Shown piece by piece: positions 798-32,009 of a DNA stretch of 64,000 nt (within the stretch, counting starts at the first letter, position 1; every line of letters starts with the position of its first letter). This stretch comes from an uncultured delta proteobacterium (GTDB lineage Bacteria > Myxococcota_A > Polyangia > Polyangiales > Polyangiaceae), in NCBI GenBank assembly GCA_963841435.1, contig CAWJCS010000004.1, positions 544,001 through 608,000 on the forward strand. Direction: 5' to 3'. The notes under the pieces are model-generated. The model searched no databases. It was given only the letters and a program-made list of their open reading frames with translations, and was not told the origin of the DNA. The translations under genes were made by a program, and so were the position numbers.

Positions 798-1967
798 TAA
801 ACGTCCATCTTCATGTTCTCGCCCTCGACGGCGTGTACGTCCGCGATACGGAGAGCGGCGCGCTCGTGTTCGAGGAGCTCGGCACGCCCAGCCACGTGGA
901 GGTACTAGACGTCGCACGCCGCACCGCCGAGCGCATCGACAGGCTGCTCGGAAAGAGCGGCCGGAGCCTCGAGCGGGAAGGGGACGAGCCCGTGCCCGAG
1001 CTCCTCTCCGACGAGCCGAGCCTGGCCTCGTGCTATGCGGCCGCTGCCCAGGGCATCAGCGTGAGCGGCGAGCGAGCGGGAAAGCCCCAGCTCAGGCTCG
1101 TCCTCGGCACTGGCGCCACTGCCGAAGGAGCCGAGCTCAACCCGGACGAGCCCGTGGCCGAGCACCTCGGCGTCAACATCCACGCCAAGCAGTCGGTTGA
1201 ACGGGCGTGATCGCCGGCAGCTCGAGCGTTTGTGCCGTTACATCACGCGGCCTCCTGTTGCTCAGGAAAGACTCGAGCGGCTTGCCGACGGCCAGCTCGA
1301 GCTCCGACTCAAGCATGCGTGGAAGGACGGCACGCGCGCCGTCGTGCTCGAGCCCGACGACTTGCTGGTCCGGCTCGTCGCCGCGGTGCCCCCGCCACGC
1401 TGGCATTTACTTCGCTACTTCGGCGTCCTCTCGAGCCACTCACGGCTCCGCCGAGAAGTTGTTCCGCACCCGCCCGCTGATCCGAGTGCTACCGCGCCTC
1501 CGCCTGCTCCGGGCGATCAGCTCGAGCTCGACCTCGACGCTGACGCTGACGAGCCTGCTCCGAGAAAAAGATGGGCCTGGCTGCTCAGACATGTGTTCAA
1601 GGCAGATTTGGATATTTGTCCGCGCTGCGGTGGACCGATGCGCTGGCTCGAGGCGGCGGCTACCCGAGAGTCTGCTCGTGACCTGCTCGCTCGGCTCGGG
1701 CTCGGGCCCAGGCCGCCGCCGGCTCCACCCCGCACGCCGCTCGCGCAGCTCACGCTGCCGTTCGCGAGGTGAGCCGGCTTGCGCTGGTCGCTGCGCCAGG
1801 CGAGCGTCCGCGCGCGTTCTGGGTTCGGGGAGCTCTGGCACCTCAGAGCCTCCTTCCGCCTCGTCCACGACAGCACGTCCACCCCATAGGCGTGCGTTCT
1901 TACGGCCTCGCCGGCCTCGCCGTGGGCCCCGCCCGGGACCTTTTGCCAGATCGTTTCGCCTAGGCGC
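798..1967 (+). mobile_element. ISCR/IS91-like element copy A, 5'-truncated (1170 bp)
   Basis: Matches 7258..8426 by eye except CGAC->TGAAC at 1198-1202 (frameshift); ends ...TTTCGCCTAGGCGC. Confidence 0.95.
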
Positions 1968-2078: not shown

Positions 2079-3302
2079 TCATCGGCACGCGGCTCCGTGG
2101 TCATCGGCCCACGGGGTGCACGTCGCCGCGCATGCGCCGCACGGCGCCCGCGAGGGGGTACCTGATACGCAGGCGACGACCGTGTTGCCGTCGCAGCTTG
2201 CGAAGCTGCCCAGCCCGTTGCAGCTGTCTTCCGCGGGTGAGACACACCGGAAACCTCCGGCGGCGGAACTGAACCCGCACACGGAACCACGAGCCGGGCA
2301 GTCGTGGCTTCTTGGCGCCCCCGCGTCGCAAAAGAAAGCGCTCCCGCGCAGACAGCTTCCTTCGGAAGTGAGCCCGGAGCAGCCAGTGTCGGAGATGGCA
2401 GCGTGACTGAGAACGTGCTCGATGAACGGGGGCCAGTCCGCCAATCGATCGACGCGGGTGTAATGGTCTTGGCCGACGCAGCTCGAGTTCCCGTGGTCCA
2501 GCACGCCGATGATATTGACTTCCCCGCTATCCCCTCGCGCTAGGAGGGGTCCTCCGGAATCGCCCTCGCACGCTCCGCTGCGGCCAAAGCCGTCGACGAC
2601 GACGTGATCTTCGTCGATGCTCGCGATCTGTTCCACCACGAAGCGCAGTTGTCCGAGCTCACCCTGTTCCGTCAGTCCATACCCGGAAAGCTCGGCGGGC
2701 GAGCCCACCCAGGCCTCGGCCAGTGGCTCGCGTCTCGGCGAAAGAGGGCGCAACTCCGCTGCGGCAAGTCCGTCGGCTTCCAACAGGACGACGTCGAGAC
2801 CTTGGTGAAGCCAGGTACGCTCGATTGACGCGCTCTGGAAGGGCGGATTGCCGACTAGAATTAGGCCCGTCGGTGACCCTGAGTCAGTCGTTTCATCGAC
2901 CGCGCCGTCGAGGTCGCGATCAAAACAGTGCGCGGCCGACAGCACGAAACCCGGAGCAACGAGCACTCCGCTGCACAGGGTACGGGCCCCACCGCCCGCG
3001 GGGCTCGGCGAGGTGGGTAGGACCGCCACGATGGCGAGGGTCTGGCTGGCGTCGAGCGGCACGAGGCGCGCTGCTGGCGCGCCTCCGACGATGCCGGAGA
3101 CCCAGCACTCGGGGCGTTCGAGATCGTCGGATGAGCCGTTCGTGCACCCGGCAACGATGGATAGACCCGTCACGAACCAGATCAACGCCGCCGTCCGGTG
3201 CAGCGGGCAGGTGCGCGGCTTGCGTGGCCAGCTCTGACGGTGCCTCACCAAGGGGGGTTTGGTGCCGAGGCACCGTCCAGGTTCAGGTAGGCGTCGCGAC
3301 AC
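2079..3302 (-). CDS. Trypsin-like (S1) serine protease lipoprotein with Cys-rich C-terminus; true start probably downstream of 3302
   Basis: LSAAHC, LDVVLL and CEGDSGGP triad motifs; IVAGC lipobox. Confidence 0.85.
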   Translation of the reverse strand: MSRRLPEPGRCLGTKPPLVRHRQSWPRKPRTCPLHRTAALIWFVTGLSIVAGCTNGSSDDLERPECWVSGIVGGAPAARLVPLDASQTLAIVAVLPTSPSPAGGGARTLCSGVLVAPGFVLSAAHCFDRDLDGAVDETTDSGSPTGLILVGNPPFQSASIERTWLHQGLDVVLLEADGLAAAELRPLSPRREPLAEAWVGSPAELSGYGLTEQGELGQLRFVVEQIASIDEDHVVVDGFGRSGACEGDSGGPLLARGDSGEVNIIGVLDHGNSSCVGQDHYTRVDRLADWPPFIEHVLSHAAISDTGCSGLTSEGSCLRGSAFFCDAGAPRSHDCPARGSVCGFSSAAGGFRCVSPAEDSCNGLGSFASCDGNTVVACVSGTPSRAPCGACAATCTPWADDHGAACR

Positions 3303-3829
3303 GTGGCCACTGGGTCCTCTGGCGGCACGGCAACCGCTTGGTAGCCGTCAACGGCGACGCTGTTGACCAACACGCTGCCATCCTTCGCCTGGATCGTGAG
3401 CGTAGCTCGATCGCCTGGGCCCAGCGCTGCGGCAAGCTCGGGCTCGTAGGTGAGCCACACCTTGAACGCCACCACGGGTCCGCTGGCGCCCATGGATACG
3501 CCGGCGTACACATCCGCGTGAAGCGCCCCATTAGCGTCGGCGACGTGCTCTTCGCAAACGTCGTTGTCGGTGCAGCCGGGTCGCGACCAGTCTTCCTCCA
3601 ATGGTAGCACCATGTCGTGGGTGCACACGTTGTCCTTCAAGCAGGCCCGGATGGTGAGGCTCGAGCTTTCAGCCGGAAGCTCCCCAACCCAGATGGTGTC
3701 GCACGGAAGCGGATTCGTGTGAGCCTTCTCGGCCGCCGAACTCCCACAGCTCGGCACAAGCAGCGACCCTGCTGTTGCGAGCACGAGGCCCCGCAATCCC
3801 TGCACCACGAACGTGACTTGGTCCTTCAA
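3245..3829 (-). CDS. Hypothetical lipoprotein, paralog of 3889..4476
   Basis: MKDQVTF...LVPSC lipobox; highly similar to the upstream paralog over its whole length. Confidence 0.75.
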   Translation of the reverse strand: MKDQVTFVVQGLRGLVLATAGSLLVPSCGSSAAEKAHTNPLPCDTIWVGELPAESSSLTIRACLKDNVCTHDMVLPLEEDWSRPGCTDNDVCEEHVADANGALHADVYAGVSMGASGPVVAFKVWLTYEPELAAALGPGDRATLTIQAKDGSVLVNSVAVDGYQAVAVPPEDPVATCRDAYLNLDGASAPNPPW

Positions 3830-3888
3830 AGTTCCTCTCAGGGCAAGGCGTGTCGTAGCCGGGCTGCGGGGTCAGTTCGGACCGTGCC

Positions 3889-4476
3889 TCACCAAGGCGG
3901 GTCTGGTTGCGAGGAACCGTCCAGATTGAGGTAGGCGTTACGGCACATCGCCACCGGGTCCTCTGGTGGCACCGCGACCGTTTGATAGTCGTCCACGGCC
4001 GCGCTGTCAACCATCATGCTGCCGTCCTTCGCCTGGATCGTGAGTGTCGGTCGATCGCCGGGGGCGAACGTTGCCGCAAGCTCGGGATCGTAGTGGAGCC
4101 GCACGGCGAGCGCCACCACGGGGTCGCTGACACCCATGGATACGCCGGAATAGACATCCGCTTGAAGCGCCCCACTATCGTCCGCGACGTGGCGTTCGCA
4201 AACGTTGTCGTCGACGCAGCCGGGTCGCGACCAGTCATCCTCCAAGGGTAGCACCATGTCGTGGGTGCACACGTCGTCCTTCAAGCAGGCCCGGATGATG
4301 AGGCTTGCGCTTTGGGCTGGAAGCTCGCCAAACCAGGCGGTGTCGCACTGGAGCTCTGGATTCGAGTCACCCTTCTCGGGTGTCGAACCCCCGCAGCCCG
4401 CCGCAAGCAACGACCCTGCTGTCGCGAGCACGAGACGACGCAACACCTGCAACCCGAAAGTAACCTGGTCCTTCAT
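3889..4476 (-). CDS. Hypothetical lipoprotein, paralog of 3245..3829
   Basis: ATG at 4476 (MKDQVTF); LAAGC lipobox; shared CDT..CLKD..CTHD..C motifs. Confidence 0.75.
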   Translation of the reverse strand: MKDQVTFGLQVLRRLVLATAGSLLAAGCGGSTPEKGDSNPELQCDTAWFGELPAQSASLIIRACLKDDVCTHDMVLPLEDDWSRPGCVDDNVCERHVADDSGALQADVYSGVSMGVSDPVVALAVRLHYDPELAATFAPGDRPTLTIQAKDGSMMVDSAAVDDYQTVAVPPEDPVAMCRNAYLNLDGSSQPDPPW

Positions 4477-4492: not shown

Positions 4493-5737
4493 CTACCAGC
4501 AGCGAACATAGGCGTTTCCATTGCTCGTGCCGTGGTAACAGCCGCCCGGAAGCCACGATTCAATCCACGGTATCTTGTCACTCAGACGCGTGTAGTACTC
4601 CTCGTTCCCCGGCTCTGGGCAGATGTCCCCCGGCGGCTCGTGCCCCGACACCGTACCGAAAATCACGCCCGTAAATCGGGCGCCTTGCCAATCAAGCCGT
4701 AGTTCGTTGCTGGCCCTCCCGAGTCACCGGAGCATTCCCTGCCCCACCCTTGCGTGACATTGGCGTGCCAATGCGAGCTACCATTCCAGCCAACCGTTTC
4801 CCAGTGATTGCCGGAGCGTCCAATGCCCACGCCCGTCCCCGAGTCCTGATTTGCGCCGTAGCCTTCCATCCAGAACTGTTGACCGGTAACTGTCATCTGA
4901 TTCAGAATCCGCGACCACGCCGCCGAAAAGTCTGCGGGCCAAGCCCACGGAGCATCGGGGCTAATCAGCGCAAGGTCGTGATCCCTGTCGCCGCTTCCTA
5001 GATAACCGGGATAGCCGAAATAGAGCGCGTTGTCTCCGGGCGCACCACAATCCGAGACGCAAGGCCAAGGCTCCGTGATGCCATCATGTGCCCACCATGG
5101 ATAGGTGCCGAAATCGACATCCGCATGCACGCTTCCGAACAAACCAGGAACGCAGTGGCGCGCGGTCAGCATCCACTGTGGACCGATCAGAACACCGCTG
5201 CACGTTCCAATGCCGGAAATCCGGAGGCGAACCGCCCACGTGTCGAAGACAAACCCATCGGCGATCTTGTCGATGTCGCCGTTCAGGTCTTCCGTGTCCG
5301 GAGGCTCGTCACCCGCCGCGCGCGGAGAGGGCTCTGCAGATGGTAGGGACTCCAGGTAGTCGTTCCTGGCGGCCATGAACGACCTGGCGTCGTCGCACGT
5401 GGCGACGCTGCGGATGCCCCTAGCCTCTATGGCGCTTGCCGCTGCGTGGTCTTCGCCGGTGGTTTTCCCGGCCAGGATGTCGTTCATCCTCGGGATGTTG
5501 TAGAGTTCGCGTTCGACGACGTGTCGGCCACTATCCGGCTCGACACGTTCCCATTCCCCGCAAACAGTGAAGCCGTCGGCGTCTAGGTAGGGGTATCCCC
5601 GATCGACGAGTTGCCACTGATCCGCCAGGACGGCTTCCCCCCCCCCCCCCGGCGATGCCGTGGTTGTCACCGCAAGCGGTGGCCGTGAGGGCCAATATCG
5701 CTAGCCCATGTCCCCGTAACGCCCTTTTTGCTCCCAT
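4493..5737 (-). CDS. Trypsin-like (S1) protease lipoprotein with two apparent frameshifts (G14 tract at 5637-5650 and near 4680)
   Basis: RBS plus MGAKR...LTATAC; LTARHC, DHDLAL, CSGDSGGP; C-terminus YYTRLSDKIPWIE...VRCW* lies in a shifted frame. Confidence 0.75.
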
Positions 5738-5840
5738 AGCCCTCTCCTCTCTAATCGTTGGAACGCCAAGTTCCGAGTGGGTAGTTGCCACGCACCCTCT
5801 GCTTCGTCAAGTGAAGATCTGATGGAATTGAACAAGAAGC

Positions 5841-6117
5841 TGATCTTCCCCCGGTTTCGTGGACACCCCAGAAGGCGCGAGAATGCGCCGGGAGTGGACC
5901 ATGGAAAACAAGAAGCAACGAAGGAAGCGGCGCTCGTTCACGGCCGAGTTCAGGGCCGAAGCGGTTCGCCTGTGCAAGGTCGGCGACCGCAGCGTCACGC
6001 AGGTGGCCAAGGACCTCGACCTCACCGAGAACTCGCTGCGTGAGTGGGTCAAGCGCGCCGACATCGACGCCGGCAGTGGACCGCCAGGCGCGCTCACCAC
6101 AGCCGAGCGCGAGGAAC
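5841..6117 (+). mobile_element. IS3-family left end plus truncated orfA
   Basis: IRL-like TGATCTTCCCCCGGTTTCGTGGACACC; ATG at 5901 gives RRSFTAEFRAEAVRL...VAKDLDL...AEREEL (HTH_Tnp_1), then breaks off. Confidence 0.85.
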
Positions 6118-6233
6118 TCGAGCTTGAGCTCGAGCTGATCGCCAGGCGCCGGCGGCGGGACATGCGCGCTCGGATCAGCGGGCGGGTGTGGCACGACTTC
6201 TCGGCGGAGCCGCGAGTGGCTCGAGAGCAGGCC
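6117..6233 (-). mobile_element. Inverted fragment of a diverged sibling ISCR-like transposase
   Basis: Encodes GLLSSHSRLRREVVPHPPADPSAHVPPPAPGDQLELKLE versus GVLSSHSRLRREVVPHPPADPSATAPPPAPGDQLELDLD in the full copy. Confidence 0.85.
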
Positions 6234-6301
6234 AGAGTCGAGCGTCTCGACAGCCGTTTGGCCGGCGGGCGTGAGGTCAGATATCGCGATGGAGGCGCCG
6301 G

Positions 6302-6400
6302 TCATTCCTCTGGGACGCGCGTCGCCGCGCGCCTCGAGCGGCCTACCCGGGAGCTCGGGCGGGCAGCCCTCGAACGCTCCTCTATGTGGCCTTGCTCCAG
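6302..6400 (-). repeat. 99-bp internal fragment of rnpB (direct repeat of 32069..32167)
   Basis: 98/99 identical by eye; single difference at 6385 (T) versus 32152 (C). Confidence 0.95.
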
Positions 6401-6657
6401 CTTTGCTGCCCACGCCCCGGCCTGCTCGGCGCGTGCTCGTGTGCTCAGGCGGGCGCGCCGCGCGCAGCGTTGACGATGGGGTCGTCGTGGCCCGCCTTGC
6501 GCGCACTGCGCGCGCTGCCTGCGCGGGCCTTGCCCCTCCCAAACTTGTGCTCGGCCGCGGGCCTGCGCGCAAGCGGGAGGGGCCCGCGACCGGCGGCCGC
6601 GTGGCGAGCCAGTGGCCGCCGGGCATCGAGCAAGCGCGATCTGGTGAGAGAGCGCAT

Positions 6658-6686
6658 CGGCACGCGGCTGGCTCGAGCGCTCGAGC
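6658..6686 (+). promoter_or_regulatory. Possible sigma-54 (-24/-12) promoter overlapping a 16-bp palindrome just before the transposase start
   Basis: CGGCACGCGGCTGGCT has GG-N10-GC spacing; GCTCGAGCGCTCGAGC (6671-6686) is a perfect palindrome abutting GTG at 6687. Confidence 0.3.
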
Positions 6687-8231
6687 GTGGGCGATCCCGC
6701 GCACAGTCGGCAAACAGAGCACGGCACTACCCGTCGGGACGGCTACGCGCGAAGGCGACCGGAAGACGGCGTGCTCTACCAGACGGTGGCCGAGCGCTGG
6801 CCGGCGTTTCGCGAGCGGATGGAGGAGTCGGGCGGGCTGCCGAAGTTCGTGGTGAGGGAGTTCGAGGAGTTCTTGAAGTGCGGCATCATCGAGGAGGGTT
6901 GTCTCCACCTCGTGTGCCGTAGCTGCGGCTACTCCGAGGTCGTGGCGCTCTCCTGCAAGAAGCGAGGGTTCTGCCCCAGTTGCCTGGGGCGGCGGATGGC
7001 GGATACGGCGGTCCACTTGGAAGAGCGTGTGCTGCCGTGCGTGCGCATTCGGCATTGGATTTGTTCCTTGCCCTGGGGCCTCAGAGCCTTGCTCGGCTAC
7101 GACCGCGAGCTCTGCGCGAAGGTCGTGAGCGCGTTCGTCGGTGAGCTCAGCCGCTCGCTCAAGAAGAGAGCGAAAGGAGAGTTCGGCCTTGCGAGCGTCG
7201 AGGATGCGCACACCGGCGCCGTCTGCACCGTGCAGAGGACGGACGGGGCTTTGCGACTAAACGTCCATCTTCATGTTCTCGCCCTCGACGGCGTGTACGT
7301 CCGCGATACGGAGAGCGGCGCGCTCGTGTTCGAGGAGCTCGGCACGCCCAGCCACGTGGAGGTACTAGACGTCGCACGCCGCACCGCCGAGCGCATCGAC
7401 AGGCTGCTCGGAAAGAGCGGCCGGAGCCTCGAGCGGGAAGGGGACGAGCCCGTGCCCGAGCTCCTCTCCGACGAGCCGAGCCTGGCCTCGTGCTATGCGG
7501 CCGCTGCCCAGGGCATCAGCGTGAGCGGCGAGCGAGCGGGAAAGCCCCAGCTCAGGCTCGTCCTCGGCACTGGCGCCACTGCCGAAGGAGCCGAGCTCAA
7601 CCCGGACGAGCCCGTGGCCGAGCACCTCGGCGTCAACATCCACGCCAAGCAGTCGGTCGACGGGCGTGATCGCCGGCAGCTCGAGCGTTTGTGCCGTTAC
7701 ATCACGCGGCCTCCTGTTGCTCAGGAAAGACTCGAGCGGCTTGCCGACGGCCAGCTCGAGCTCCGACTCAAGCATGCGTGGAAGGACGGCACGCGCGCCG
7801 TCGTGCTCGAGCCCGACGACTTGCTGGTCCGGCTCGTCGCCGCGGTGCCCCCGCCACGCTGGCATTTACTTCGCTACTTCGGCGTCCTCTCGAGCCACTC
7901 ACGGCTCCGCCGAGAAGTTGTTCCGCACCCGCCCGCTGATCCGAGTGCTACCGCGCCTCCGCCTGCTCCGGGCGATCAGCTCGAGCTCGACCTCGACGCT
8001 GACGCTGACGAGCCTGCTCCGAGAAAAAGATGGGCCTGGCTGCTCAGACATGTGTTCAAGGCAGATTTGGATATTTGTCCGCGCTGCGGTGGACCGATGC
8101 GCTGGCTCGAGGCGGCGGCTACCCGAGAGTCTGCTCGTGACCTGCTCGCTCGGCTCGGGCTCGGGCCCAGGCCGCCGCCGGCTCCACCCCGCACGCCGCT
8201 CGCGCAGCTCACGCTGCCGTTCGCGAGGTGA
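6687..8231 (+). CDS. IS91-family/ISCR-type HUH transposase (Zn-binding N-terminal domain plus Y2_Tnp)
   Basis: CRSC...SCKKRGFCPSC zinc motif, NVHLH HUH motif, ERLCRYITRP single-Tyr ISCR-type motif, LRYFGVL, C-terminal CPRCGG. Confidence 0.93.
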   Translation: MGDPAHSRQTEHGTTRRDGYARRRPEDGVLYQTVAERWPAFRERMEESGGLPKFVVREFEEFLKCGIIEEGCLHLVCRSCGYSEVVALSCKKRGFCPSCLGRRMADTAVHLEERVLPCVRIRHWICSLPWGLRALLGYDRELCAKVVSAFVGELSRSLKKRAKGEFGLASVEDAHTGAVCTVQRTDGALRLNVHLHVLALDGVYVRDTESGALVFEELGTPSHVEVLDVARRTAERIDRLLGKSGRSLEREGDEPVPELLSDEPSLASCYAAAAQGISVSGERAGKPQLRLVLGTGATAEGAELNPDEPVAEHLGVNIHAKQSVDGRDRRQLERLCRYITRPPVAQERLERLADGQLELRLKHAWKDGTRAVVLEPDDLLVRLVAAVPPPRWHLLRYFGVLSSHSRLRREVVPHPPADPSATAPPPAPGDQLELDLDADADEPAPRKRWAWLLRHVFKADLDICPRCGGPMRWLEAAATRESARDLLARLGLGPRPPPAPPRTPLAQLTLPFAR

Positions 8232-8426
8232 GCCGGCTTGCGCTGGTCGCTGCGCCAGGCGAGCGTCCGCGCGCGTTCTGGGTTCGGGGAGCTCTGGCAC
8301 CTCAGAGCCTCCTTCCGCCTCGTCCACGACAGCACGTCCACCCCATAGGCGTGCGTTCTTACGGCCTCGCCGGCCTCGCCGTGGGCCCCGCCCGGGACCT
8401 TTTGCCAGATCGTTTCGCCTAGGCGC

Positions 8427-8983
8427 TCAAGACGGCGAAGACCGACTACACCGAGCACGCCGACAAGCACGACGTCTCCAACATCGTGCGTGGCATCATG
8501 AAGGAGCAGCACCGCGCGATGTTCGCCGCTCTGCGCGCGGGCTCGCTCGACGCGGCGCTCGAACGAGCGATTGGTCCCCTGTCCGAAGTTCCCGCGAAAG
8601 GCCCTGCCAGCCGCCGTCCGGAAAGCGTGCGTCCCGCGCATCCGCGCGAGCAGAATAGCCCCCGCCGCGGCCCACCACAGAACCCCGCCCTGCAGGGCGT
8701 GTCGCCCTCCGTGTCGCCTCCTACCTCTGACGACTTCGACGCAGGCACACTGCGCGATCTCCCGCCCGCGTCGCTGTCGCAGCCAGCGCCGCGCTCGCGC
8801 AAGACCAACCAGCCGCCGCGCCGCAGTCGCCCCCCGTCGCCGCATCGCCCGGCGGCCCAATTCGCCGGGGCGCCGGAAGCCCGTGCCCGCTCCATCTTCG
8901 GTGACGAAGCGATCAGCGAGCAGACCTTGGACGAGGTCATCCTGAGCTATCTCGCCGAGGATCTCGACGACTCGGGCGAGTGA
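8427..8983 (+). pseudogene. 5'-truncated conserved myxobacterial hypothetical protein, fused to the element terminus
   Basis: Frame opens at the junction as LKTAKTDY...IMKEQHRAMFAALRAG and ends FGDEAISEQTLDEVILSYLAEDL; N-terminus absent; family recognised from memory. Confidence 0.6.
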
Positions 8984-9146: not shown

Positions 9147-11879
9147 TTGATGATGGGGCGAAAACCCGGGTGGTTGTTGTTTGGGGCGATCGCGTGTCTC
9201 ACCACGCTTGGTTGCGGGAACGTAAACGACGATGTGGGGGGGGGTGAGACAACATCCCACACGCGTGAAGCGCTAACTCAGAACTTCACTCTGCCGGTCC
9301 CGGTCGGCTTCACCCCGCAGGACATCGTTGTCGGTGCGATCGGTGTCGTGAACCTCAACGACAACGCCAAAATTCTCACGCACGCTCCGGGGCAGCTTTC
9401 CCAATACGGCAACGTGGCGGCGTTCGGCTCGCCAAGCACCACGAGCAACATAGGCGCCCTGAGGGCGGGCGTGGTCTGGTCACGTCCCAGCTTGCTTCTG
9501 CGCCAGCATAATCAAGGCGGCGCGAACATCGAATTTTACAAGACCGAGGGCACCGCGACCGAACAGTTAGGATTTGTCATCGCTCGGCCGGAGGAGAACA
9601 GAACTCAGGTCCAAATCCGACGAGATCCGATTTGGACCGTTCCGATGTCCGCGCCTGACGGAGGAATGGACCATAACGTGAACAGCGGCGAAACCGTTTC
9701 GCTCGGGTCCGGCAACTACGGTCGCTGGACGGTCAACTCCGGCGGAACGCTGATCCTCACGGGCTCGACCTATGGCTTTGTGGAGCTCAACCTCAACTCC
9801 GGCGGGACCGTGCAGCTTACTTCTTCGATACCACCGTGGATCTTCGTGCGGGATTCGCTGATCGTGCGCGCCACATTGAACAAGCCGGGCATGGTTGTTG
9901 GCTATCTCGGCACGAGCACGGTACCGGTCGAGTACCCCTTCTACGGCGACTTGCTTCTTGCTCCGAACGCGGACATCGAAGTCAAGTCCGGTAGCCAAGC
10001 GCACTTCTTCGGCAAAGACGTGACGGTCTTCGAAGCGGTTGTCGTCGATGGACCTCCCTTGTCGGAACGAACGCAGGGACTCGTGCGACCCCTCAGCAGC
10101 ATCGGGCTCCCCGCCGGTCTGATCGACGATGCCGTGGCGGCGGAGATCTCGTCGGCGGTACTCACGTCCCAGCTCGGCTGCGGAACAGCACACGCGTTCG
10201 TCAGCCACTACGGCAACGCCTTGATGGACAAGCTCGTTTCCGACATCGGCACCACCAATCCAGCCTCCTTCGCGACATTTCCCACGCCGGCTGCGCCGGG
10301 CTCCTGCACGTCGCTCGGCTGGTTGCCCGGTGAAACGCCGGCGTGGCCCGCGCTGGCGGGCGGTACGCCTTCGTACGACGACACGCTGACCGTGGCTGAT
10401 AACGCACTGGTGCGCATGAGCGGGGGCCGCCTGGCGCAGGCCGGGCTTGCCGGTCGAACCTGCGTCGATCCGAGCAATAACATCGCGCAAGGGCCAAACT
10501 GCCCGGGGTCGCAGCCCACGGCGGGCGATCCCTGCAATCCCAGCGGGCTCGACAACAAGGCCTGCATCTACGGCACGACCCAGTGCCAGTGCTTGCCGAC
10601 GGCGTGCAAAGGGCTCGAGGGGGCGAGCTGCTTCCAGCCGTTCGAGGCAAAGGACTGCTGCAGCGAGTCCTGTTCCGTTCAGTCGGGGAGCAACGTGGGG
10701 ACGTGTACGGCGCCGGATCCCATGCAGGTTCTGAACCCGACGTGGAGCTGCGGGCCGCTCGAGCGCGTGGAAACTGCCACGATGAGCGTTCGGATCGGGA
10801 CCAGCTGCGGCAGCCAGTGGACGAGCAAGAGCTTCGACCCGGTCGTGCTCGGCATGACGTTGAGCGACGGCATCCCGGTCCGCGACTTCGATCGGCAAGA
10901 GATGTACTGGGACAACTTCGACGATCGGCTCTACCTCAACGTCAACTCGTACGCCGGCTTTGGCGGTGGAGGTAGCCTCGTCAGCCAGAACTTCATCTAT
11001 TCGGCGTCAGCGGCGGGCATCAACAACGCCGTGAACCTCGCCTTTCAGCCCGTGTTGCCACAGAAGGTTGCCGGTGACGACGACGCCTCGGGCCCGCGCG
11101 TGATGACCACGGTCCTCGACGAAAAGGCGCGGCTCACCTCCAATCCCGTCACGTTCGGGCGCTACGTGCACCTCGTCACCGCGCGCTGCTTCGGCACGCG
11201 CCCGCAGGTGCAGATCTACACGCCGTTCGGGAGGAGGACGTGGGATCTGAATGAAGGGGATCCGGATGTAGCGGCACAATGCCGTAGCGCTGTCGTCCCG
11301 TACCCGCTTCTCACGCGGGGTCCAGGCATCGCCGCCGTGTCTTCCGTCCCGCCGCGCGTGCGCATCGCGTACACCGGCGTGGATGCGGAGGGCTCGATGG
11401 TCATCAACGTATACTCGGCGACGATCCTGAGCGGGAACGATTACGCCGACCGCCCGTTGATCGTACGCGAACACACGGTGCACGCGCCGTCGTCCGGTCG
11501 AGACACCGTCTGGCCGAACCTCATTGGCGTGGACGGCCTGGCCGGTTCCGATCGCCAGCTCGACTCCCCGATGGTGCTCCGCTGGCTAGAATTTGGCCCG
11601 AACGATATGGTCAGCGAGAAGTTCCAGGTGCTCTATTCGGGCCTTGCCGGTCCCGAGGCAACGCTCCAGAGCTGGACGCTCAGCGACCTGCCCGCGATGG
11701 GAAGCGACTACCGTTACGGGTCGTTCTTCGAGAAGTCGGGAGGCGAGCTCCGCTTCTTCACGCCTTGGACGGGCGTGAGCCGAACTTCCATGGGGCAATT
11801 GATCTGTCGCGACGGGAACAACACACCGATTCCCTGTGCGAGTGGAGGCTTCGTCGATGTCACGCCTAAGCTCTTATGA
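9147..11879 (+). CDS. Large secreted lipoprotein (beta-helix-like N-terminus, Cys-rich middle, propeller-like C-terminus)
   Basis: 910-aa ORF with LTTLGC lipobox and Cys clusters. Confidence 0.75.
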   Translation: MMMGRKPGWLLFGAIACLTTLGCGNVNDDVGGGETTSHTREALTQNFTLPVPVGFTPQDIVVGAIGVVNLNDNAKILTHAPGQLSQYGNVAAFGSPSTTSNIGALRAGVVWSRPSLLLRQHNQGGANIEFYKTEGTATEQLGFVIARPEENRTQVQIRRDPIWTVPMSAPDGGMDHNVNSGETVSLGSGNYGRWTVNSGGTLILTGSTYGFVELNLNSGGTVQLTSSIPPWIFVRDSLIVRATLNKPGMVVGYLGTSTVPVEYPFYGDLLLAPNADIEVKSGSQAHFFGKDVTVFEAVVVDGPPLSERTQGLVRPLSSIGLPAGLIDDAVAAEISSAVLTSQLGCGTAHAFVSHYGNALMDKLVSDIGTTNPASFATFPTPAAPGSCTSLGWLPGETPAWPALAGGTPSYDDTLTVADNALVRMSGGRLAQAGLAGRTCVDPSNNIAQGPNCPGSQPTAGDPCNPSGLDNKACIYGTTQCQCLPTACKGLEGASCFQPFEAKDCCSESCSVQSGSNVGTCTAPDPMQVLNPTWSCGPLERVETATMSVRIGTSCGSQWTSKSFDPVVLGMTLSDGIPVRDFDRQEMYWDNFDDRLYLNVNSYAGFGGGGSLVSQNFIYSASAAGINNAVNLAFQPVLPQKVAGDDDASGPRVMTTVLDEKARLTSNPVTFGRYVHLVTARCFGTRPQVQIYTPFGRRTWDLNEGDPDVAAQCRSAVVPYPLLTRGPGIAAVSSVPPRVRIAYTGVDAEGSMVINVYSATILSGNDYADRPLIVREHTVHAPSSGRDTVWPNLIGVDGLAGSDRQLDSPMVLRWLEFGPNDMVSEKFQVLYSGLAGPEATLQSWTLSDLPAMGSDYRYGSFFEKSGGELRFFTPWTGVSRTSMGQLICRDGNNTPIPCASGGFVDVTPKLL

Positions 11880-12561
11880 TCTCTGGATCCTCACGGCGCT
11901 CGTCGCGGTCGGCGCTTGCGGGCGCTCGACGCGCGAGCCACCGAGCGACGGAGGGCGGTCGGGAGTTGGCGGTGGCGGAACGAGCGGGGGTACGATCGGT
12001 GGAGTTGGTGCAGTAGGCGCTGCCGGCGTTTCTGCAGGAGGCTCTCAGGGAGGCACGGGGACAGGCGGTACGGGGACAGGCGGCGCGGCCGCGCGCGGAG
12101 GAGCGAGCGCCGGCACATCGGCGAGCGGAGGCGTGAGCCCGACTGGCGGCTCAGGAGCGGTGAGCGCCGGTGGTCAGGGCGAGGACAGTGGCGAAGGGGG
12201 CGCGCCGGCGGGCTCCGCGGGCCGCGGCGGCGACTCGGGCCGTGGCGGACAGAGCGCGGGGCGCGGGGGAACGGCTGGCACGAGCGGGGGGACCGGAGGC
12301 GACGCCTCGGGAGCGGCGGGAGCCACGAGCTGGCGAGACTTGCGGTGCGTGATAGCCGAGTCACAAGGATCCTGCCTCAAACAGGCGCCCAATACCGTGG
12401 TCGTCAACTGCAACGGAGCTGATGTCGTGGAGGCGATGGAAGCCGGCTGCAGTGGCTGCACCTATGGGCAGGCCTACTGCGAATATGGTGGCGGTCCCAT
12501 CCCACCCGACTGCGGAGGCCTGGGCCAAGCGTGCTGTCGGAGCTGCTGCTGTCCGCCGTGA
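11857..12561 (+). CDS. Gly-rich lipoprotein with Cys-rich C-terminus
   Basis: MSRLSSYDL...VGAC lipobox; overlaps the upstream stop; ends CCRSCCCPP. Confidence 0.7.
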   Translation: MSRLSSYDLWILTALVAVGACGRSTREPPSDGGRSGVGGGGTSGGTIGGVGAVGAAGVSAGGSQGGTGTGGTGTGGAAARGGASAGTSASGGVSPTGGSGAVSAGGQGEDSGEGGAPAGSAGRGGDSGRGGQSAGRGGTAGTSGGTGGDASGAAGATSWRDLRCVIAESQGSCLKQAPNTVVVNCNGADVVEAMEAGCSGCTYGQAYCEYGGGPIPPDCGGLGQACCRSCCCPP

Positions 12562-13367
12562 GCGAGCGGGCATCGCGCGCTTTTTTCGCCCGCGTGAGCA
12601 CGACAAGTGGCGCGCTCCGCACCCGCTCCCGCGCCTTGCACCTCGGCCTGGCAGAGGCAGGGACGCAGCGACCCGTCTCGCTCGGACGGGCAGAGTGAGT
12701 CAGATGACAGGAGCATTGCACCCTGCCAGGTGCTGAGTGGAGGCTTCGTCGATGTCACGCCTAAGCTCTTATGATCTCTGGATCCTCACAGCGCTCGTCG
12801 CGGTCGGCGCTTGCGGGCGCTCGACGCGCGAGCCACCGAGCGACGGAGGGCGGTCGGGAGTTGGCGGTGGCGGAACGAGCGGGGGTACGATCGGTGGAGT
12901 TGGTGCAGTAGGCGCTGCCGGCGTTTCTGCAGGAGGCTCGCAGGGAGGCACGGGGACAGGCGGTACGGCGACAGGCGGCGCGGCCGCGCGCGGAGGAGCG
13001 AGCGCCGGCACATCGGCGAGCGGAGGCGTGAGCCCGACTGGCGGCTCAGGAGCGGTGAGCGCCGGTGGTCAGGGCGAGGACAGTGGCGAAGGGGGCGCGC
13101 CGGCGGGCTCCCCGGGCCGCGGCGGCGACTCGGGCCGTGGCGGACAGAGCGCGGGGCGCGGGGGAACGGCTGGCACGAGCGGGGGGACCGGAGGCGACGC
13201 CGCTGGAGCGGCGGGAGCCACGAGCTGGCGGGACTTGCGGTGCGTTGCGGCCGAACTGCAGAGATCATGCCTTAAGCAGGAACCCAATACCGTGGTCGTC
13301 AACTGCAACGTAACCGCTGCACGGACCCCATCTGTCGAGCACGCGCTGGTGCTGGCAGAAGTCGTGC

Positions 13368-13664
13368 ATGCGGAAGCGGTACACGGCTGAGCAGCGGGAG
13401 CGGTTGGTCGCTGAGGTAGCGGCGGGCGAGGCGGTGCCGGTGGTGGCGGCGCGGATGGGTGTGGGGGCCTCGGCGGCATACCTGTGGGTCAAGGAGGCAC
13501 GAGAGGGGAGCAAGCCGACGTTCGCGAAGCTGGTGCGGGCGTTAACGCCGGCGGCGTCATCGTCGATGGTGCTCGAAGTGGGACGAGCTCGAGTGCGCGT
13601 CGAAGCTGGCTTCGACGCCGAGCTGCTCAGGCGGGTCGTGTCGGCGCTGAGCGACGCATCGTGA
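13368..13664 (+). CDS. tnpA: IS66 TnpA (HTH)
   Basis: RKRYTAEQRERLV...YLW...VEAGFDAELLRRVV. Confidence 0.85.
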   Translation: MRKRYTAEQRERLVAEVAAGEAVPVVAARMGVGASAAYLWVKEAREGSKPTFAKLVRALTPAASSSMVLEVGRARVRVEAGFDAELLRRVVSALSDAS

Positions 13665-14002
13665 TCGGGCAGGGGCTTCCGGTGTACGTGGCGCTCGAGC
13701 CGGTGGACATGCGGTTCGGATACGAGCGGCTCGGCGGGGTCGTGCGTGAGCGGATGCAGGCGGAGCCGAGGTCGAAGGCGCTGTTCGTTTTCGTCGGCAA
13801 ACGCGGGCACACGATGAAAGTGCTGACCTGGGACGGCTCGGGCACGATCGTGGTTCACAAGCGGCTCGACGCGGGGAAGTTCGAGCTGCCGAAGGCGACG
13901 CGAGTCGGCGATCAGCACGTGATCGTGAGCGACGCGATCTTCGAGGTGATCTACAAGGGCGTCGCAACGGCACCGAGGAAAGTTCGCCGGCGCGTGCACT
14001 GA
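13661..14002 (+). CDS. tnpB: IS66 accessory protein TnpB
   Basis: VYVALEPVDMRFG...LFVFVGKR...KVLTWDGSG...KRLDAGKF. Confidence 0.9.
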   Translation: MIGQGLPVYVALEPVDMRFGYERLGGVVRERMQAEPRSKALFVFVGKRGHTMKVLTWDGSGTIVVHKRLDAGKFELPKATRVGDQHVIVSDAIFEVIYKGVATAPRKVRRRVH

Positions 14003-14070
14003 GTCGGAGCTCGCAATTTTCTTACGCGCCCGCTTGAGAAATTCGATCGCGCTCATGTATAGAGGAGAGC

Positions 14071-15750
14071 GTGTCGAGCACGCGATCGGACGAAGCGAAA
14101 CCGCAGCTATCGCCGGACGAGCTCACCATGCTGCTCTCGACGCTCCAGGCCGAGGTCGTGGGGCTCAAGACGCGTTTCTCCGAGGCCGTGACGCGCAACG
14201 AGGCGCTCGAGGAAACGATCGTCAACCTGACGCACGAAAACGAGCTACTCAAGCGCCGCATCTACGGCAACAAAACGGAGCGGACCGGGACGAGCGAGCT
14301 TCAGCTGACGCTCGGCAACCTGCTCGACTCGGAAAAACAGCTTCAGAAGGAGCTCGACGCCGCCGTGGCCAAGGCGCGTGGCGATGACGACGTTCCTGCC
14401 GCCCCGCCCGCGGGCGCCTCGCGACCGAAGCCCAAGGGCCGGCGAGATTTGTTGGCGAGCGACCTGCCGCGCGTCCTGTTCGAGATCCGCGACGAGGAGC
14501 TCGAGAAGACGGGCAAGCTCATCGGCTGGGACTACGCGCCGCAGCTGATGTACCGCCGAGGCGGCTGGTCGGTCCTGGTCAAGCGCACGGCCAAGTACGA
14601 GATCCCCGGCAAGGACGGCCCGACGGTGCTCGGCGTCGAGACGCCGAAGACGTTGTTCCGGCGCGGTCTCCTGCATTCGTCGGTCGTGGCACACGTCTTG
14701 GCGCAGAAGTTCTCGCTCGGCGTGCCGCACTACCGACTCGAGCAGCACCTCGCCGGCCAGGGTGTCGACCTCGACCGCGGTCTCATGTGCCGCTACGTGG
14801 AAGAAGCGGGTAGCACGTGCGGAGCCACCATCGTCCACGCCATGTGGCAGGACGCGCTCGAGAGCGGCTCGGTGATCTCGACCGATGCAACGTCGGCGCT
14901 GATCCAGCCTGAAAAGAGCCAAAATGGCCAGCGGCAGGCCTGCAAGAAGGGCCACTTCTTCACCGCCGTCGTGGACACCGACCACGTGCTGTTCGCGTAC
15001 GCCGAGAAGCACACGCAAGACTTCGTGAAGAAGCTCTTCGGCGGCTTCACGGGATTTCTCCAGTCCGACGCCAGCAACGTCTACGACATCCTGGACCGGG
15101 GACCCCCCAGCGAAGATGACGAGACCGTCACCCTCGTCGGATGTTGGGCTCACTGCAGGCGCTATTTCTTCGAGGCCGCGATCTGCAAACACCAGATCGG
15201 CATCCAAGGCCTCTTGCGCATTCGCGCCATCTACGCTGCTGACGACGCGTTCCGGAAGCTGCCGCCCGCCAAACGCAAGGCGCTGCGCGATACGCACCTG
15301 CGCCCCCTCATGCTGAGCTTCTTCGAGTGGGTGAAGGCCACGCGCCTCACCACGCCCGGCCGCAGTCTCGCAACCAAAGCGCTCGGCTACGCGTTCAACC
15401 AGGAGAACGAGCTCTTGCGCGTGCTCGACGACGGCCGTCTGCCCCTCGACAACACGCGCTCCGAACGCTCGCTGCGAAAAATCGTCGTGGGTCGCAAAAA
15501 TTGGATGTTCTACGGCAGCGACACCCACGCCGAGAGCGCCGCCGCCATCTTCAGCCTGATCGCCTCCTGCCGGCTTCACCGGCTCGACGCCGAGCAGTAC
15601 CTCGACGAGATCCTCCGCGTCCTGCCCTACTGGCCCCCGACTCGCTACCTCGAGCTCGCTCCGAAGTTCTGGCCCGCCACCCGTGCCAAGCTTCGCGCCG
15701 AGGAACTCGACGCACCGCTGTGCCCGTTCACCATCCCGCCGGCGGCCTGA
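14071..15750 (+). CDS. tnpC: IS66 DDE transposase TnpC
   Basis: GCWAHCRRYF, LDNTRSERSLRKIVVGRKNWMF, SLIASC motifs. Confidence 0.93.
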   Translation: MSSTRSDEAKPQLSPDELTMLLSTLQAEVVGLKTRFSEAVTRNEALEETIVNLTHENELLKRRIYGNKTERTGTSELQLTLGNLLDSEKQLQKELDAAVAKARGDDDVPAAPPAGASRPKPKGRRDLLASDLPRVLFEIRDEELEKTGKLIGWDYAPQLMYRRGGWSVLVKRTAKYEIPGKDGPTVLGVETPKTLFRRGLLHSSVVAHVLAQKFSLGVPHYRLEQHLAGQGVDLDRGLMCRYVEEAGSTCGATIVHAMWQDALESGSVISTDATSALIQPEKSQNGQRQACKKGHFFTAVVDTDHVLFAYAEKHTQDFVKKLFGGFTGFLQSDASNVYDILDRGPPSEDDETVTLVGCWAHCRRYFFEAAICKHQIGIQGLLRIRAIYAADDAFRKLPPAKRKALRDTHLRPLMLSFFEWVKATRLTTPGRSLATKALGYAFNQENELLRVLDDGRLPLDNTRSERSLRKIVVGRKNWMFYGSDTHAESAAAIFSLIASCRLHRLDAEQYLDEILRVLPYWPPTRYLELAPKFWPATRAKLRAEELDAPLCPFTIPPAA

Positions 15751-15928
15751 GCTCGGCGCGAGCGCGGCATCGCGACCCCCGGCCGAGCTGCCCTTTCAAG
15801 ATGGGGTCGGTGTAGCGGTTACACTGCAACGGAGCTGACGTGGTGGAGGCGATGGAAGCCGGCTGCACTGCCTGCACCTACGGGCAGGCGTACTGCGATT
15901 ATGGCGGCGGCCCCGTCCCACCCGATTG

Positions 15929-16413
15929 AGGCAGGTGGGTCGGGTCTAGAATGGATGCCATTTGGATTCGCTGGCGGTTTGTTCGATGCGCGGTCGGGAA
16001 CGATAAGGTTTGGGGCGCGCGACTATGATCCCGTGATCGGTCGATGGACCGCGAAGGATCCCTTGTTCTTTGCTTCGCGGACGACCAACCACTACGCCTA
16101 CGTGGGGAACGACCCAGTCAATGATCGCGATCCAACGGGTCTGCAGTTTCTGACCGGGTGCTCGCCGGTGAAGCCGGAGCAGGAGCTGAAAGAGAAGAAG
16201 GATGAGGAGGTCGATGAATGTAGCAAGATCCCGCGAGGCGGAAAAGGGAAACTGCTCGGCCCGAACGAGTCCTCTGACTCCGAACCGGACTACGCGGCGC
16301 AAGCCGCCAAGTGCCGGAAGAAGGAGCGGGAGTACAGCAAGGAGCAGAAGGACTACACTGAAGAAGAGTCGAACATTTTTCACAGGATCTTCTGTTGGTT
16401 TTTCGGCTGCTAG
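15929..16413 (+). pseudogene. Orphan RHS core end plus C-terminal (toxin-position) domain
   Basis: PFGFAGGLFD...RFGARDYDPVIGRWTAKDP...YAYVGNDPVNDRDPTGL, then about 90 variable aa; no RHS body upstream. Confidence 0.85.
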
Positions 16414-17773: not shown

Positions 17774-18490
17774 CCTCCTGTTGCTCAGGAAAGACTCGAG
17801 CGGCTTGCCGACGGCCAGCTCGAGCTCCGACTCAAGCATGCGTGGAAGGACGGCACGCGCGCCGTCGTGCTCGAGCCCGACGACTTGCTGGTCCGGCTCG
17901 TCGCCGCGGTGCCCCCGCCACGCTGGCATTTACTTCGCTACTTCGGCGTCCTCTCGAGCCACTCACGGCTCCGCCGAGAAGTTGTTCCGCACCCGCCCGC
18001 TGATCCGAGTGCTACCGCGCCTCCGCCTGCTCCGGGCGATCAGCTCGAGCTCGACCTCGACGCTGACGCTGACGAGCCTGCTCCGAGAAAAAGATGGGCC
18101 TGGCTGCTCAGACATGTGTTCAAGGCAGATTTGGATATTTGTCCGCGCTGCGGTGGACCGATGCGCTGGCTCGAGGCGGCGGCTACCCGAGAGTCTGCTC
18201 GTGACCTGCTCGCTCGGCTCGGGCTCGGGCCCAGGCCGCCGCCGGCTCCACCCCGCACGCCGCTCGCGCAGCTCACGCTGCCGTTCGCGAGGTGAGCCGG
18301 CTTGCGCTGGTCGCTGCGCCAGGCGAGCGTCCGCGCGCGTTCTGGGTTCGGGGAGCTCTGGCACCTCAGAGCCTCCTTCCGCCTCGTCCACGACAGCACG
18401 TCCACCCCATAGGCGTGCGTTCTTACGGCCTCGCCGGCCTCGCCGTGGGCCCCGCCCGGGACCTTTTGCCAGATCGTTTCGCCTAGGCGC
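17774..18490 (+). mobile_element. ISCR/IS91-like element copy C, 5'-truncated (717 bp)
   Basis: Identical by eye to 7710..8426. Confidence 0.95.
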
Positions 18491-24249: not shown

Positions 24250-24886
24250 CACGCGCGCCGTCGTGCTCGAGCCCGACGACTTGCTGGTCCGGCTCGTCGC
24301 CGCGGTGCCCCCGCCACGCTGGCATTTACTTCGCTACTTCGGCGTCCTCTCGAGCCACTCACGGCTCCGCCGAGAAGTTGTTCCGCACCCGCCCGCTGAT
24401 CCGAGTGCTACCGCGCCTCCGCCTGCTCCGGGCGATCAGCTCGAGCTCGACCTCGACGCTGACGCTGACGAGCCTGCTCCGAGAAAAAGATGGGCCTGGC
24501 TGCTCAGACATGTGTTCAAGGCAGATTTGGATATTTGTCCGCGCTGCGGTGGACCGATGCGCTGGCTCGAGGCGGCGGCTACCCGAGAGTCTGCTCGTGA
24601 CCTGCTCGCTCGGCTCGGGCTCGGGCCCAGGCCGCCGCCGGCTCCACCCCGCACGCCGCTCGCGCAGCTCACGCTGCCGTTCGCGAGGTGAGCCGGCTTG
24701 CGCTGGTCGCTGCGCCAGGCGAGCGTCCGCGCGCGTTCTGGGTTCGGGGAGCTCTGGCACCTCAGAGCCTCCTTCCGCCTCGTCCACGACAGCACGTCCA
24801 CCCCATAGGCGTGCGTTCTTACGGCCTCGCCGGCCTCGCCGTGGGCCCCGCCCGGGACCTTTTGCCAGATCGTTTCGCCTAGGCGC
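24250..24886 (+). mobile_element. ISCR/IS91-like element copy D, 5'-truncated (637 bp)
   Basis: Identical by eye to 7790..8426. Confidence 0.95.
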
Positions 24887-25376
24887 TCGACGCAAGACCG
24901 ACCAGTTCGTGATCGATAGGCTTCGAAAGACCCCGTTCGAAGTGGGTGCAGATCGGATCGCGCGTACGGCGCACGCGGCTCTGGGACTCTTGGCGAGTCT
25001 CCGTAACCAGTGCTGCGACCCCATCCCGCTCGCCTGGAGCCCTGGACGAGCTGCGGGTCGCCACTGTATCGAGGTCTACCCGGCGGCGACGCTTCTGGGC
25101 AGGGGTCTGCTGGCCAAGGGCTACAAGGGGAAGCGAACCGAACTTGCCAGCCGGGAAAAACGTCTCACGATACTCAAGGCGCTCTCCGCGGAAGTGCGTT
25201 TGGCGGGCGCCGTTGAACGGGACGCAGCCGCCGTAGACCACGTGCTCGATGCGGTGATCTGCGTGATTGCTGCTGCCGACTTCGTCAAGGGAACCGTAAT
25301 CGTCCCAGAAGACCCAACTGTTGCGAGGCGGGAGGGCTGGATCTGGTTCTCCGACCGGCGCTCCAACACGCCTTGA
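24887..25376 (+). pseudogene. 5'-truncated DUF429 (RNase H-like) protein
   Basis: RRKTD...VGADRIARTAHAAL...IEVYPAATL...DHVLDAVIC...REGWIW. Confidence 0.75.
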
Positions 25377-25472: not shown

Positions 25473-25721
25473 ATGGCCGCCACCCCTACCTCCCCTGCTG
25501 CCGATCACGAGAGCCACGAGCCCCCGAGCACGCCCGCCAACGGGACCCCGCGTGCCGAGACGAAGCCGATCACCGTGATGCTCCCCGACGACTTGCTCAA
25601 GAAGCTGAAGATCGTCGCCATCGTCCGCGAGACCAGTGTGAGCGAGCTGGTCGCCGAGGCCGCTGCCGGCGTGGTGCGGCGGGAGCTGAAGAAGGCGGTA
25701 GCGAAGATCTCGGGCGAGTAG
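25473..25721 (+). CDS. Ribbon-helix-helix (CopG-like) protein
   Basis: ITVMLPDDLLKKLKIVAIVRETSVSELV. Confidence 0.7.
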   Translation: MAATPTSPAADHESHEPPSTPANGTPRAETKPITVMLPDDLLKKLKIVAIVRETSVSELVAEAAAGVVRRELKKAVAKISGE

Positions 25722-25901
25722 TCATAGAACTCGTCGCCCGCTCCGACCCGGAGAGGGGCCTTTCTTAGTTGATCGTTTGGTCTGGGGGCACCTCGCGCCC
25801 CGCATGGAAGTCTGGACTTGACCTCACCAAACCAGCGGCGCACCATCACACCATCCAGGGCGGCGGCCCGGCGGGCGGGCGCCGAACTGGGGGAGATTCC
25901 C

Positions 25902-26513: not shown

Positions 26514-26541
26514 GACCTCAACGTTCAAGGCGGAGGGTGGC

Positions 26542-31678: not shown

Positions 31679-31983
31679 TCGGGGGGTGACGTGGGGCGAG
31701 CGTTCGGTACTCGACTACCCCTCTGGTGCTGAGCCCGTCGCGGGCAATGCAGAAATCGGGGCGCGAATCCGCACAGATCCGGATCCGCCAAGAGTAGTGG
31801 AGCGTGAAGGGGGGAAGGCCACCGCCGACCAGCCTCCGGCGGTGGGCAGAGGTGCCCGGCCTTCTGAGCCAGCGCTCGCGTCAGGTCGAGGGCAAGCGGT
31901 CCGGTTCCTGCCCGTTGCAACGGCCTTGCGTTCAGCTGCGGGCCCGTCGCGCGAGAAATGTTCATTTTCACCCCCGAAATAGG

Positions 31984-32007
31984 CACGCCCGGCTTTCGCC
32001 GGGCGTG
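31984..32007 (-). terminator. Hairpin directly 3' of rnpB (10-bp stem, GAAA loop)
   Basis: CACGCCCGGC-GAAA-GCCGGGCGTG on the minus strand; weak U tract. Confidence 0.6.
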
Positions 32008-32009
32008 GT

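Follow-up and report, generated by a model that had tools for sequence, protein, structure and literature searches.

A stack of sequence fragments at the termination end of an IS91-family element in a soil myxobacterium: a probable record of repeated read-through

An intact IS91-family element in the genome of a soil myxobacterium (Polyangiaceae) is preceded by a stack of five short foreign pieces, and the junctions between the innermost of these recur at one or two further loci of the same genome. On balance we regard this stack, with some reservation, as the termination-end flank of an active element: the three inner pieces would be layers acquired by read-through of the left end, and the two outer ones would belong to the landing site. 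The mechanism itself, one-ended transposition, is already established (IS91, IS1294); the layered natural record is a new example of it.

The window analysed here, 64,000 nucleotides in length, corresponds to C4:544001-608000 of a 7.8-Mb genome in six contigs (G000). Contig labels C2, C4, C5 and C6 without a genome prefix refer to this genome, positions without a contig label to the window, and the pieces are designated A to E from left to right. An earlier note, made from the letters of the window alone, had described four pieces upstream of the intact element, namely an IS3 end, an inverted IS91 piece, a short stretch and part of rnpB. Blastn and Rfam confirm all four, with the lengths of the last two amended from 68 to 62 bp and from 99 to 105 bp, respectively. 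With window 5700-8500 as blastn query against G000, the matches of the pieces have E-values of 1e-27 to 1e-127, which rules out chance similarity.

The element, its ends and its surroundings

The transposase gene (6687-8231, plus strand) is intact and encodes 514 aa. Pfam matches assign to its product a HUH/Y2 catalytic domain (Y2_Tnp, 1e-22; 81 bits, cut-off 20.9) and an N-terminal zinc-binding domain (Zn_Tnp_IS91, 5e-15; 56 bits, cut-off 26.3), a combination that identifies it as an IS91-family rolling-circle transposase; Pfam finds no other domain in the protein, and a helicase (RepHel) is absent. These domains, together with the precise origin end and the one-ended products read from the sequence, make the element a member of the IS91 family. 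Its kin occur in Polyangiaceae MAGs, and the gammaproteobacterial relatives found share about 31-39% protein identity. Tblastn detects 44 IS91 transposase segments in G000. Among 201 genomes of the family, no close copy of the window subfamily exists outside G000, the best match having 77% DNA identity, and the leader of the element is absent from 40 relatives.

In IS91-type elements the promoter side of the transposase gene holds terIS, and oriIS follows downstream of the gene (PMC13393415, excerpt). The right, oriIS-type end is sharply defined in the window element: the 3' non-coding part (8232-8426, plus strand) runs to the conserved terminus ...GCCTAGGCGC, and the motif CC(T/A)(A/T)GGCGC closes 13 of 14 aligned right ends in G000, with divergence immediately beyond. 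The target tetranucleotide abutting oriIS in IS91 is given as CTTG or GTTC (PMC13181058, excerpt). The elements described here differ from IS91 in this respect, having no conserved tetranucleotide beside the right end: no common 4-mer follows it in 13 copies of G000 or in 14 copies of the related genome G151. The conserved last bases of the right end could themselves include the target tetranucleotide.

In contrast to the constant right end, the extent on the ter side is variable. Blastn against G000 retrieves 5'-truncated copies with 99-100% identity and the same right end that start at element positions 7022, 7258, 7710 and 7790, and a further left boundary lies at 6233. Two truncated copies are located in the window itself, at 17774-18490 (from element position 7710) and at 24250-24888 (from 7790); the left flank of the first ends in GGAAC and that of the second in GAAAC, and the first is followed by about 90 bp from the ori side of a different sibling IS91.

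The right end of the element cuts a gene (8427-8983, plus strand) that lacks its first ~47 codons. Its paralogue at C2:978290-979015 is matched by the window copy over aa 48-242, and tblastn finds the missing 5' part nowhere in G000. Neither an empty site nor an orthologous locus for this gene was found, the genes of relatives resembling the C2 paralogue more, and in silico excision of the element in search of an open reading frame across the insertion site gave an ambiguous outcome in this GC-rich DNA. Overall, neither an empty site nor a de novo event was seen, which counts against the read-through interpretation.

The native left end can be placed by analogy. Sibling IS91 copies in G000 with 75-85% identity are homologous to the window copy only from about 6678, and the homology of piece E stops at 6623, so that the intervening stretch 6624-6686 (plus strand) is the candidate for the leader and terIS end of the native element. 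In the G151 sibling, 68 bp separate the canonical left end from the homologous GTG start downstream of it; in a pair of G000 siblings (C6:188307 and C5:882317) the distance is 78 bp. By this analogy the native element most likely starts near 6624, and its putative body of about 1.8 kb (~6624-8426) matches the 1801-1802 bp of the G151 element. No copy of the window subfamily ends near 6624, which counts against this placement, and hairpin folding at the element ends gave energies no better than those of shuffled sequences (z -0.17). Left boundaries beginning with (C)AGAG or GAGC were noticed in a few cases (window 6233, 6119 and 7022, the 993 boundary in G151 and the canonical left end); the terIS cleavage site of IS91 is given as 5'-CTCG, the complement of which is CGAG.

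The surroundings are dense in insertion sequences, and ordinary nested insertion and deletion have also shaped the region, which counts against a history of read-through alone. An IS66-family element with HTH_Tnp_1, TnpB_IS66 and DDE_Tnp_IS66 open reading frames occupies 13314-15931; the sequence that follows IS66 in a C2 copy (C2:28846-29775) is found inverted at window 25710-26639, 10 kb from the window IS66. Between the insertion-sequence cluster and rnpB, 26182-30696 encodes a large protein of secreted type that has a CBM_2 domain and RTX calcium-binding repeats. Local direct repeats occur at 3221-3828 and 3865-4475 (82%), covering two paralogous small open reading frames between protease genes, and at 11836-12415 and 12730-13310 (96%). 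Close to the 5' end of a trypsin-like protease gene (4663-5670, minus strand) lies a run of about 13-14 C (5636-5652; poly-G on the coding strand) that could be either a slippage-prone tract or a homopolymer error of long-read sequencing.

The inner fragments and a sibling element

The earlier note had let the element begin directly after the rnpB piece, at 6401; this start has to be abandoned, since 6405-6623 is a fifth foreign piece. Piece E is a fragment of a dispersed, hairpin-rich intergenic repeat with 83.6% identity to C4:705443-705659 (E 5e-57), which lies in an intergenic region between convergent genes. E-like copies are present in the relatives G006, G001 and G004 at 77-87% identity; an IS91 transposase match was found beside none of four fetched loci, and Rfam returned no match in three loci with E-like copies (L004, L017 and L018). 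The family is GC-rich and may be a REP-like element; in G006 four copies lie within 6 kb (L017 4607-10742).

Piece D (6296-6400, minus strand, 105 bp) is a fragment of the 3' half of rnpB with 97.1% identity to window 32063-32167 (E 2e-43). That segment lies within the true rnpB gene at 32007-32390 on the minus strand (Rfam, 286 bits), which has the same orientation as piece D and is located 25.7 kb to its right. Piece C (6234-6295) comprises 62 bp and is carried along with the element; it has no match in G000 beyond the window and its identical counterpart on C5, nor in 40 relatives or 46 genomes of the genus.

Pieces C, D and E recur in a second copy of the element, which is split. Its left half (C5:896869-897894) corresponds to element positions 6233-7258 in reverse at 99.8% identity and includes the three pieces with 100% identity (C5:897427-897894, query positions 393-860); its right half (window 798-1967, plus strand) corresponds to positions 7258-8426, likewise at 99.8%. 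The two halves lie on different contigs and both break at position 7258, and the break in C5 is found in an independent public contig as well (X1 record 4); such a split suggests that a large rearrangement had one of its breakpoints within the element. Both flanks of this copy differ from those of the window copy. Upstream of position 6233, the C5 copy continues with 279 bp and then with a 257-bp right-end fragment of IS66, which is interrupted by a 2.6-kb insertion sequence with an 8-bp duplication. Together with piece C, the 279 bp have no homologue in 46 genus genomes and look non-coding.

A third locus, C6:177030-177266, shares the D-E junction, but there the rnpB piece is longer: its 194 bp are equivalent to window 31976-32169 at 92.8% identity and extend through the 3' end of rnpB and its terminator. 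The D-E junction thus occurs at three loci of G000 (window, C5 and C6) and the C-D junction at two (window and C5). Piece D and the C6 version both carry a T where the rnpB of G000 itself and those of five relatives have a C (six aligned), and this common derived base argues for descent from one capture. Nested stacks with common element-proximal pieces, which the earlier note had set as a test of its proposal, are hence found for the inner pieces. Apart from the window, inner pieces are present at just two loci of G000, which counts against the read-through interpretation; the C5 copy is half an element split at 7258, and the C6 copy is no longer joined to a body of the same subfamily. Among the Logan contigs of four public runs, one independent contig bridges the D-E junction with 0 differences (X1 record 2, 6325-6475) and none spans A-B, B-C or C-D; a search for the exact D-E junction pattern gave 0 matches in genome contigs and 0 in metagenome contigs.

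The origin of piece D poses a particular question. Its capture by read-through implies that the element once resided inside rnpB sequence, and insertion into a functional rnpB should be lethal, which counts against this route. At 93% identity, the C6 version is as close to the rnpB of G000 as to those of G246, G250 and G255, and there is no closer donor among these alleles. G246 possesses solo 3' fragments of rnpB that are not near an IS91 transposase: one of 151 bp (G246:C85, L160 3821-3971) begins with the terminator and closely follows an FG-GAP repeat gene, and one of 39 bp (G246:C16, L161 4038-4076) lies in direct orientation 1.6 kb downstream of the rnpB of that genome. Such fragments suggest that a non-essential solo fragment may have been the source of piece D; this is a guess.

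A clearer record of successive extension is provided by a sibling element with 67% protein identity in G151, a five-contig genome from another genus of the same family. G151 contains 12 full-length copies that are 98-100% identical, in addition to truncated ones, two of which are 5'-truncated with 100% identity. All share one precise right end: the 14 copies examined end in CTCCTACGCGC(C), and the right flanks of the 12 full-length copies all differ. Four of the 12 have the canonical left end TGAGCGAGCG directly joined to a unique left flank, and no target-site duplication is present in any of these four (read by eye). The same left-end sequence is present inside the other eight copies and therefore has five left contexts, four unique flanks and one shared extension.

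These eight copies carry nested upstream extensions of 55, 427, 827, 993, 1609 and 1940 bp. The first 55 bp are common to all eight and 427 bp to six. These six divide into a pair with 827 bp in common and a group of four with 993 bp in common, and within the group of four another pair has 1609 bp in common. The last two copies have, past the initial 55 bp, a stretch of 1940 bp in common. Two captures in succession are required for the 827 and 1940 lineages. Because the extended copies all have different right flanks, unequal crossing-over between copies is excluded, and the nesting bears out the proposal of the earlier note that the oldest piece lies nearest to the element. The captured DNA comprises a whole DUF559 gene and 3' fragments of 150 or 766 bp of an IgGFc_binding gene; the copy at G151:C2:150166-151966, which has both genes intact upstream, looks like the in-place master. 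With extensions ranging from 55 to ~1900 bp and including a whole gene, captures are not merely the 'micro' events that the earlier note had envisaged. A comparison of a tree of the element bodies with the layers was without signal, as six of the 12 copies are identical and the others differ mostly by single-base indels.

Thirteen sibling copies lie on one strand within 150 kb of G151 (C2:14000-152000), and at one locus (L143) the right end continues straight into an additional ori-proximal fragment of 107 bp. In another MAG two tandem truncated copies of 1.1 kb follow a full one (L045). In a further MAG, copies with one and the same right end reach 2.0, 3.0 and at least 4.2 kb to the left, an observation of little weight as one of the contigs is binned to another phylum.

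The outer fragments and competing histories

Read from its products, the proposed mechanism would operate as follows. Transposition in this family would start at the precise right (ori) end and should stop about 65-80 bp upstream of the transposase start; where termination is missed, the upstream flank would be copied along in a one-ended event. If the composite then moved again and ended inside or beyond the extra stretch, layers would accumulate outwards from the element, the oldest innermost. Such layers would be pieces E, D and C, now moving with the element, whereas the two outer pieces would most simply belong to the local landing site, piece A as a resident IS3 and piece B as an older inverted IS91 fragment. 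At least one deletion beside the ori end of the element would account for the absence of the remaining IS3 sequence and of the start of the gene on the right.

The outer pieces differ from the inner ones in that they and the junctions A-B and B-C occur only once in G000 (blastn). Piece A (5851-6119, plus strand) comprises the left end of an IS3-family element and the first ~73 codons of orfA. It is 97.4% identical over 269 bp (E 5e-127) to C5:871623-871891, part of the only other IS3 copy that blastn finds in G000, and the open reading frame 5859-6473 carries HTH_Tnp_1, typical of IS3 orfA. Both ends of the C5 copy carry the IS3 inverted repeat CCGGTTYCGTGGACA (L001 3624-3638 and 6089-6103), and piece A starts exactly at this terminus, which indicates that the IS3 inserted here by its own means and looks like a resident. 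The remainder of the window IS3 is nowhere in G000; its loss, together with that of the ~47 codons on the other side, points to at least one deletion beside the ori end.

Piece B (6118-6233, minus strand) stems from the interior of a diverged sibling IS91 transposase gene, covering aa ~399-437 and containing neither end of its parent element. Its best blastn match is C2:550335-550224 (90.2%, E 2e-36), tblastn places aa 399-437 at C4:550233-550117 (87%), and the element's own positions 7881-7996 match it in reverse orientation at 83.6%. In light of the G151 pattern, an outermost layer that is seen in one copy only is simply flank, and the two outermost pieces are probably local insertion-sequence debris.

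The earlier note had gone further, taking all its pieces, A and B included, as serially captured; on such a model 5851-8426 would be one mobile unit that had passed through five or more earlier sites. The uniformly short pieces (62-269 bp) with minimal overlap at their junctions fit such a history, and serial capture is proven in the family by the G151 sibling; for piece B, capture from an earlier site and insertion beside an older fragment followed by deletion would by our own count take about equal numbers of events. Nevertheless, nothing shows that A and B, present once in G000, ever moved, the odds of a read-through stopping at the very terminus of the IS3 by chance are about 1 in 270, and the sequences left of 5851 and right of 8426 do not form a simple interrupted site, with 47 codons missing from the genome. 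We therefore consider capture of all the pieces unlikely; serial capture at the non-ori end stands for C, D and E and is not supported for the two pieces found in the window only, and the exact IS3 terminus speaks against the claim that the IS3 piece was captured.

Conversely, the whole arrangement might have arisen by nested insertion, deletion and recombination with no capture by IS91, the sharing with C5 and C6 reflecting segmental duplications. Insertion sequences are crowded in this genome (the IS3, the IS66 at 13314-15931, the 2.6-kb insertion sequence and the 44 IS91 segments), deletions have clearly occurred and the second copy is itself split at 7258. Pieces D and E, however, are not insertion sequences. 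Moreover, the copy divided between C5 and window 798 has the exact right terminus of the family (13 of 14) together with different flanks on both sides, which argues for its transposition and against segmental duplication, and the eight extended G151 copies all differ in their right flanks, which excludes unequal crossing-over. A history of this kind is thus quite unlikely.

Integrative islands are known to enter tRNA and tmRNA genes, and by extension an island could have integrated in the 3' portion of rnpB, with piece D as the resulting displaced direct repeat and piece E as the island end; the IS91 element would have inserted just inside this end and later carried D-E to C5 and C6. In line with this, the true rnpB follows piece D at a distance of 25.7 kb and in direct orientation, the C6 version spans the rnpB terminator to the same inner boundary, the gene order shared with G246 is conserved 5' of rnpB and not beyond its 3' end, and the solo 3' fragments of G246 lie away from any IS91 transposase. 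Yet none of the 13 Phage_integrase matches in G000 falls within C4:544001-608000, and no tyrosine integrase was detected in 43 (38 plus 5) of the 70 open reading frames of at least 130 aa between 8.4 and 32.1 kb, the 27 omitted ones overlapping long open reading frames in other frames. No integrase was found among the open reading frames scanned beside the G246 fragments or the longer rnpB fragment of C6 either, and piece D in the window, truncated and 100% identical to its C5 counterpart, is more likely a copy than an original; an island origin is accordingly very unlikely.

That the stack is a chimeric repeat join made by the assembler is extremely improbable in spite of the repeat-rich region and the lack of public contigs bridging A-B, B-C and C-D, since C-D and D-E were assembled independently in the C5 contig and D-E in the C6 contig, the same D-E junction is bridged without differences by the independent public contig, and piece B is only 84-90% like any copy and so effectively unique sequence.

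Known systems and implications

Read-through of a termination end by an IS91-family element agrees well with what is known of IS91, IS801 and IS1294, with which the element shares the HUH transposase type and the ori end downstream of the gene. An unlike ter end on the promoter side is seen in the G151 sibling and in the pair of G000 siblings, and the lack of target duplication in G151 (four of four copies with unique flanks). Termination by IS91 and IS1294 fails in 1-14% of events and mobilises adjacent DNA (PMC13181058, excerpt), and failure would likewise carry upstream DNA in the arrangement described here. The position of the stack at the termination, non-ori end, as the earlier note had it, conforms to the published polarity (PMC13393415 and PMC13181058, excerpts). 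In contrast to the single laboratory events described for these elements, several layers have here been kept in natural copies.

ISCR elements (ISCR1, ISCR2, ISCR27 and ISCR28) belong to the same superfamily and also carry truncated genes on the termination side, as in truncated folK-sul4-ISCR28 (PMC12772301, excerpt). They are usually described with whole resistance genes, whereas the load of the window element consists of non-functional pieces of 62-219 bp and includes no resistance gene. Unlike what the earlier note had supposed in treating the family as ISCRs without a termination end, the G151 sibling clearly uses a canonical left end, found in five left contexts; with such a working end in its sibling, the window element is not an ISCR in the strict sense.

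Helitrons offer a further parallel in their read-through or premature stop at the termination end, flank capture and stacks of fragments from several genes, and the Helitron Helraiser captures flank in ~12% of events (PMC4778049, excerpt). Here, by contrast, the helicase is absent, the termination end lies upstream of the transposase gene as opposed to the 3' transduction of Helitrons, and the host is a bacterium; lacking a helicase domain, the element is not a Helitron. LINE-1 elements, through 3' transduction and 5' truncation, similarly combine one fixed end and one variable end with dead truncated copies, and the flank they carry marks the source. Their transposition is RNA-mediated and involves unrelated enzymes, so that this comparison is an analogy only. 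The excerpts returned by full-text literature searches contained no description of layered captures for IS91 or ISCR.

One-ended transposition is the accepted route by which ISCRs pick up resistance genes, and natural evidence for such transduction was still called 'circumstantial' in a 2016 paper (PMC4778049, excerpt). The Polyangiaceae copies provide a natural series with a fixed right end, a canonical left end and extensions of 55 to ~1900 bp that are two to three layers deep. Read-through is thus frequent and repeatable outside clinical plasmids, and short scraps of non-coding DNA and of RNA genes, not whole genes alone, are spread around the genome by it. The layers can mislead annotation, for instance as pseudo-rnpB matches, and they can be used to order transposition events. 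The more general proposition, that repeated read-through routinely leaves IS91-family elements of the Polyangiaceae with heritable, ordered records of their former sites in several layers, is one that we put forward tentatively and regard as rather doubtful. Were the reading as a layered record true, the rnpB layer would mean either that the element had transiently inserted into an essential RNA gene or that the piece was captured by template switching, with no insertion beforehand. The stacks would then be a bacterial counterpart of the gene-fragment stacks of Helitrons, layers E, D, C and possibly B would serve as a lineage tracer of individual insertion-sequence copies, and the layers may give the transposase gene new upstream signals.
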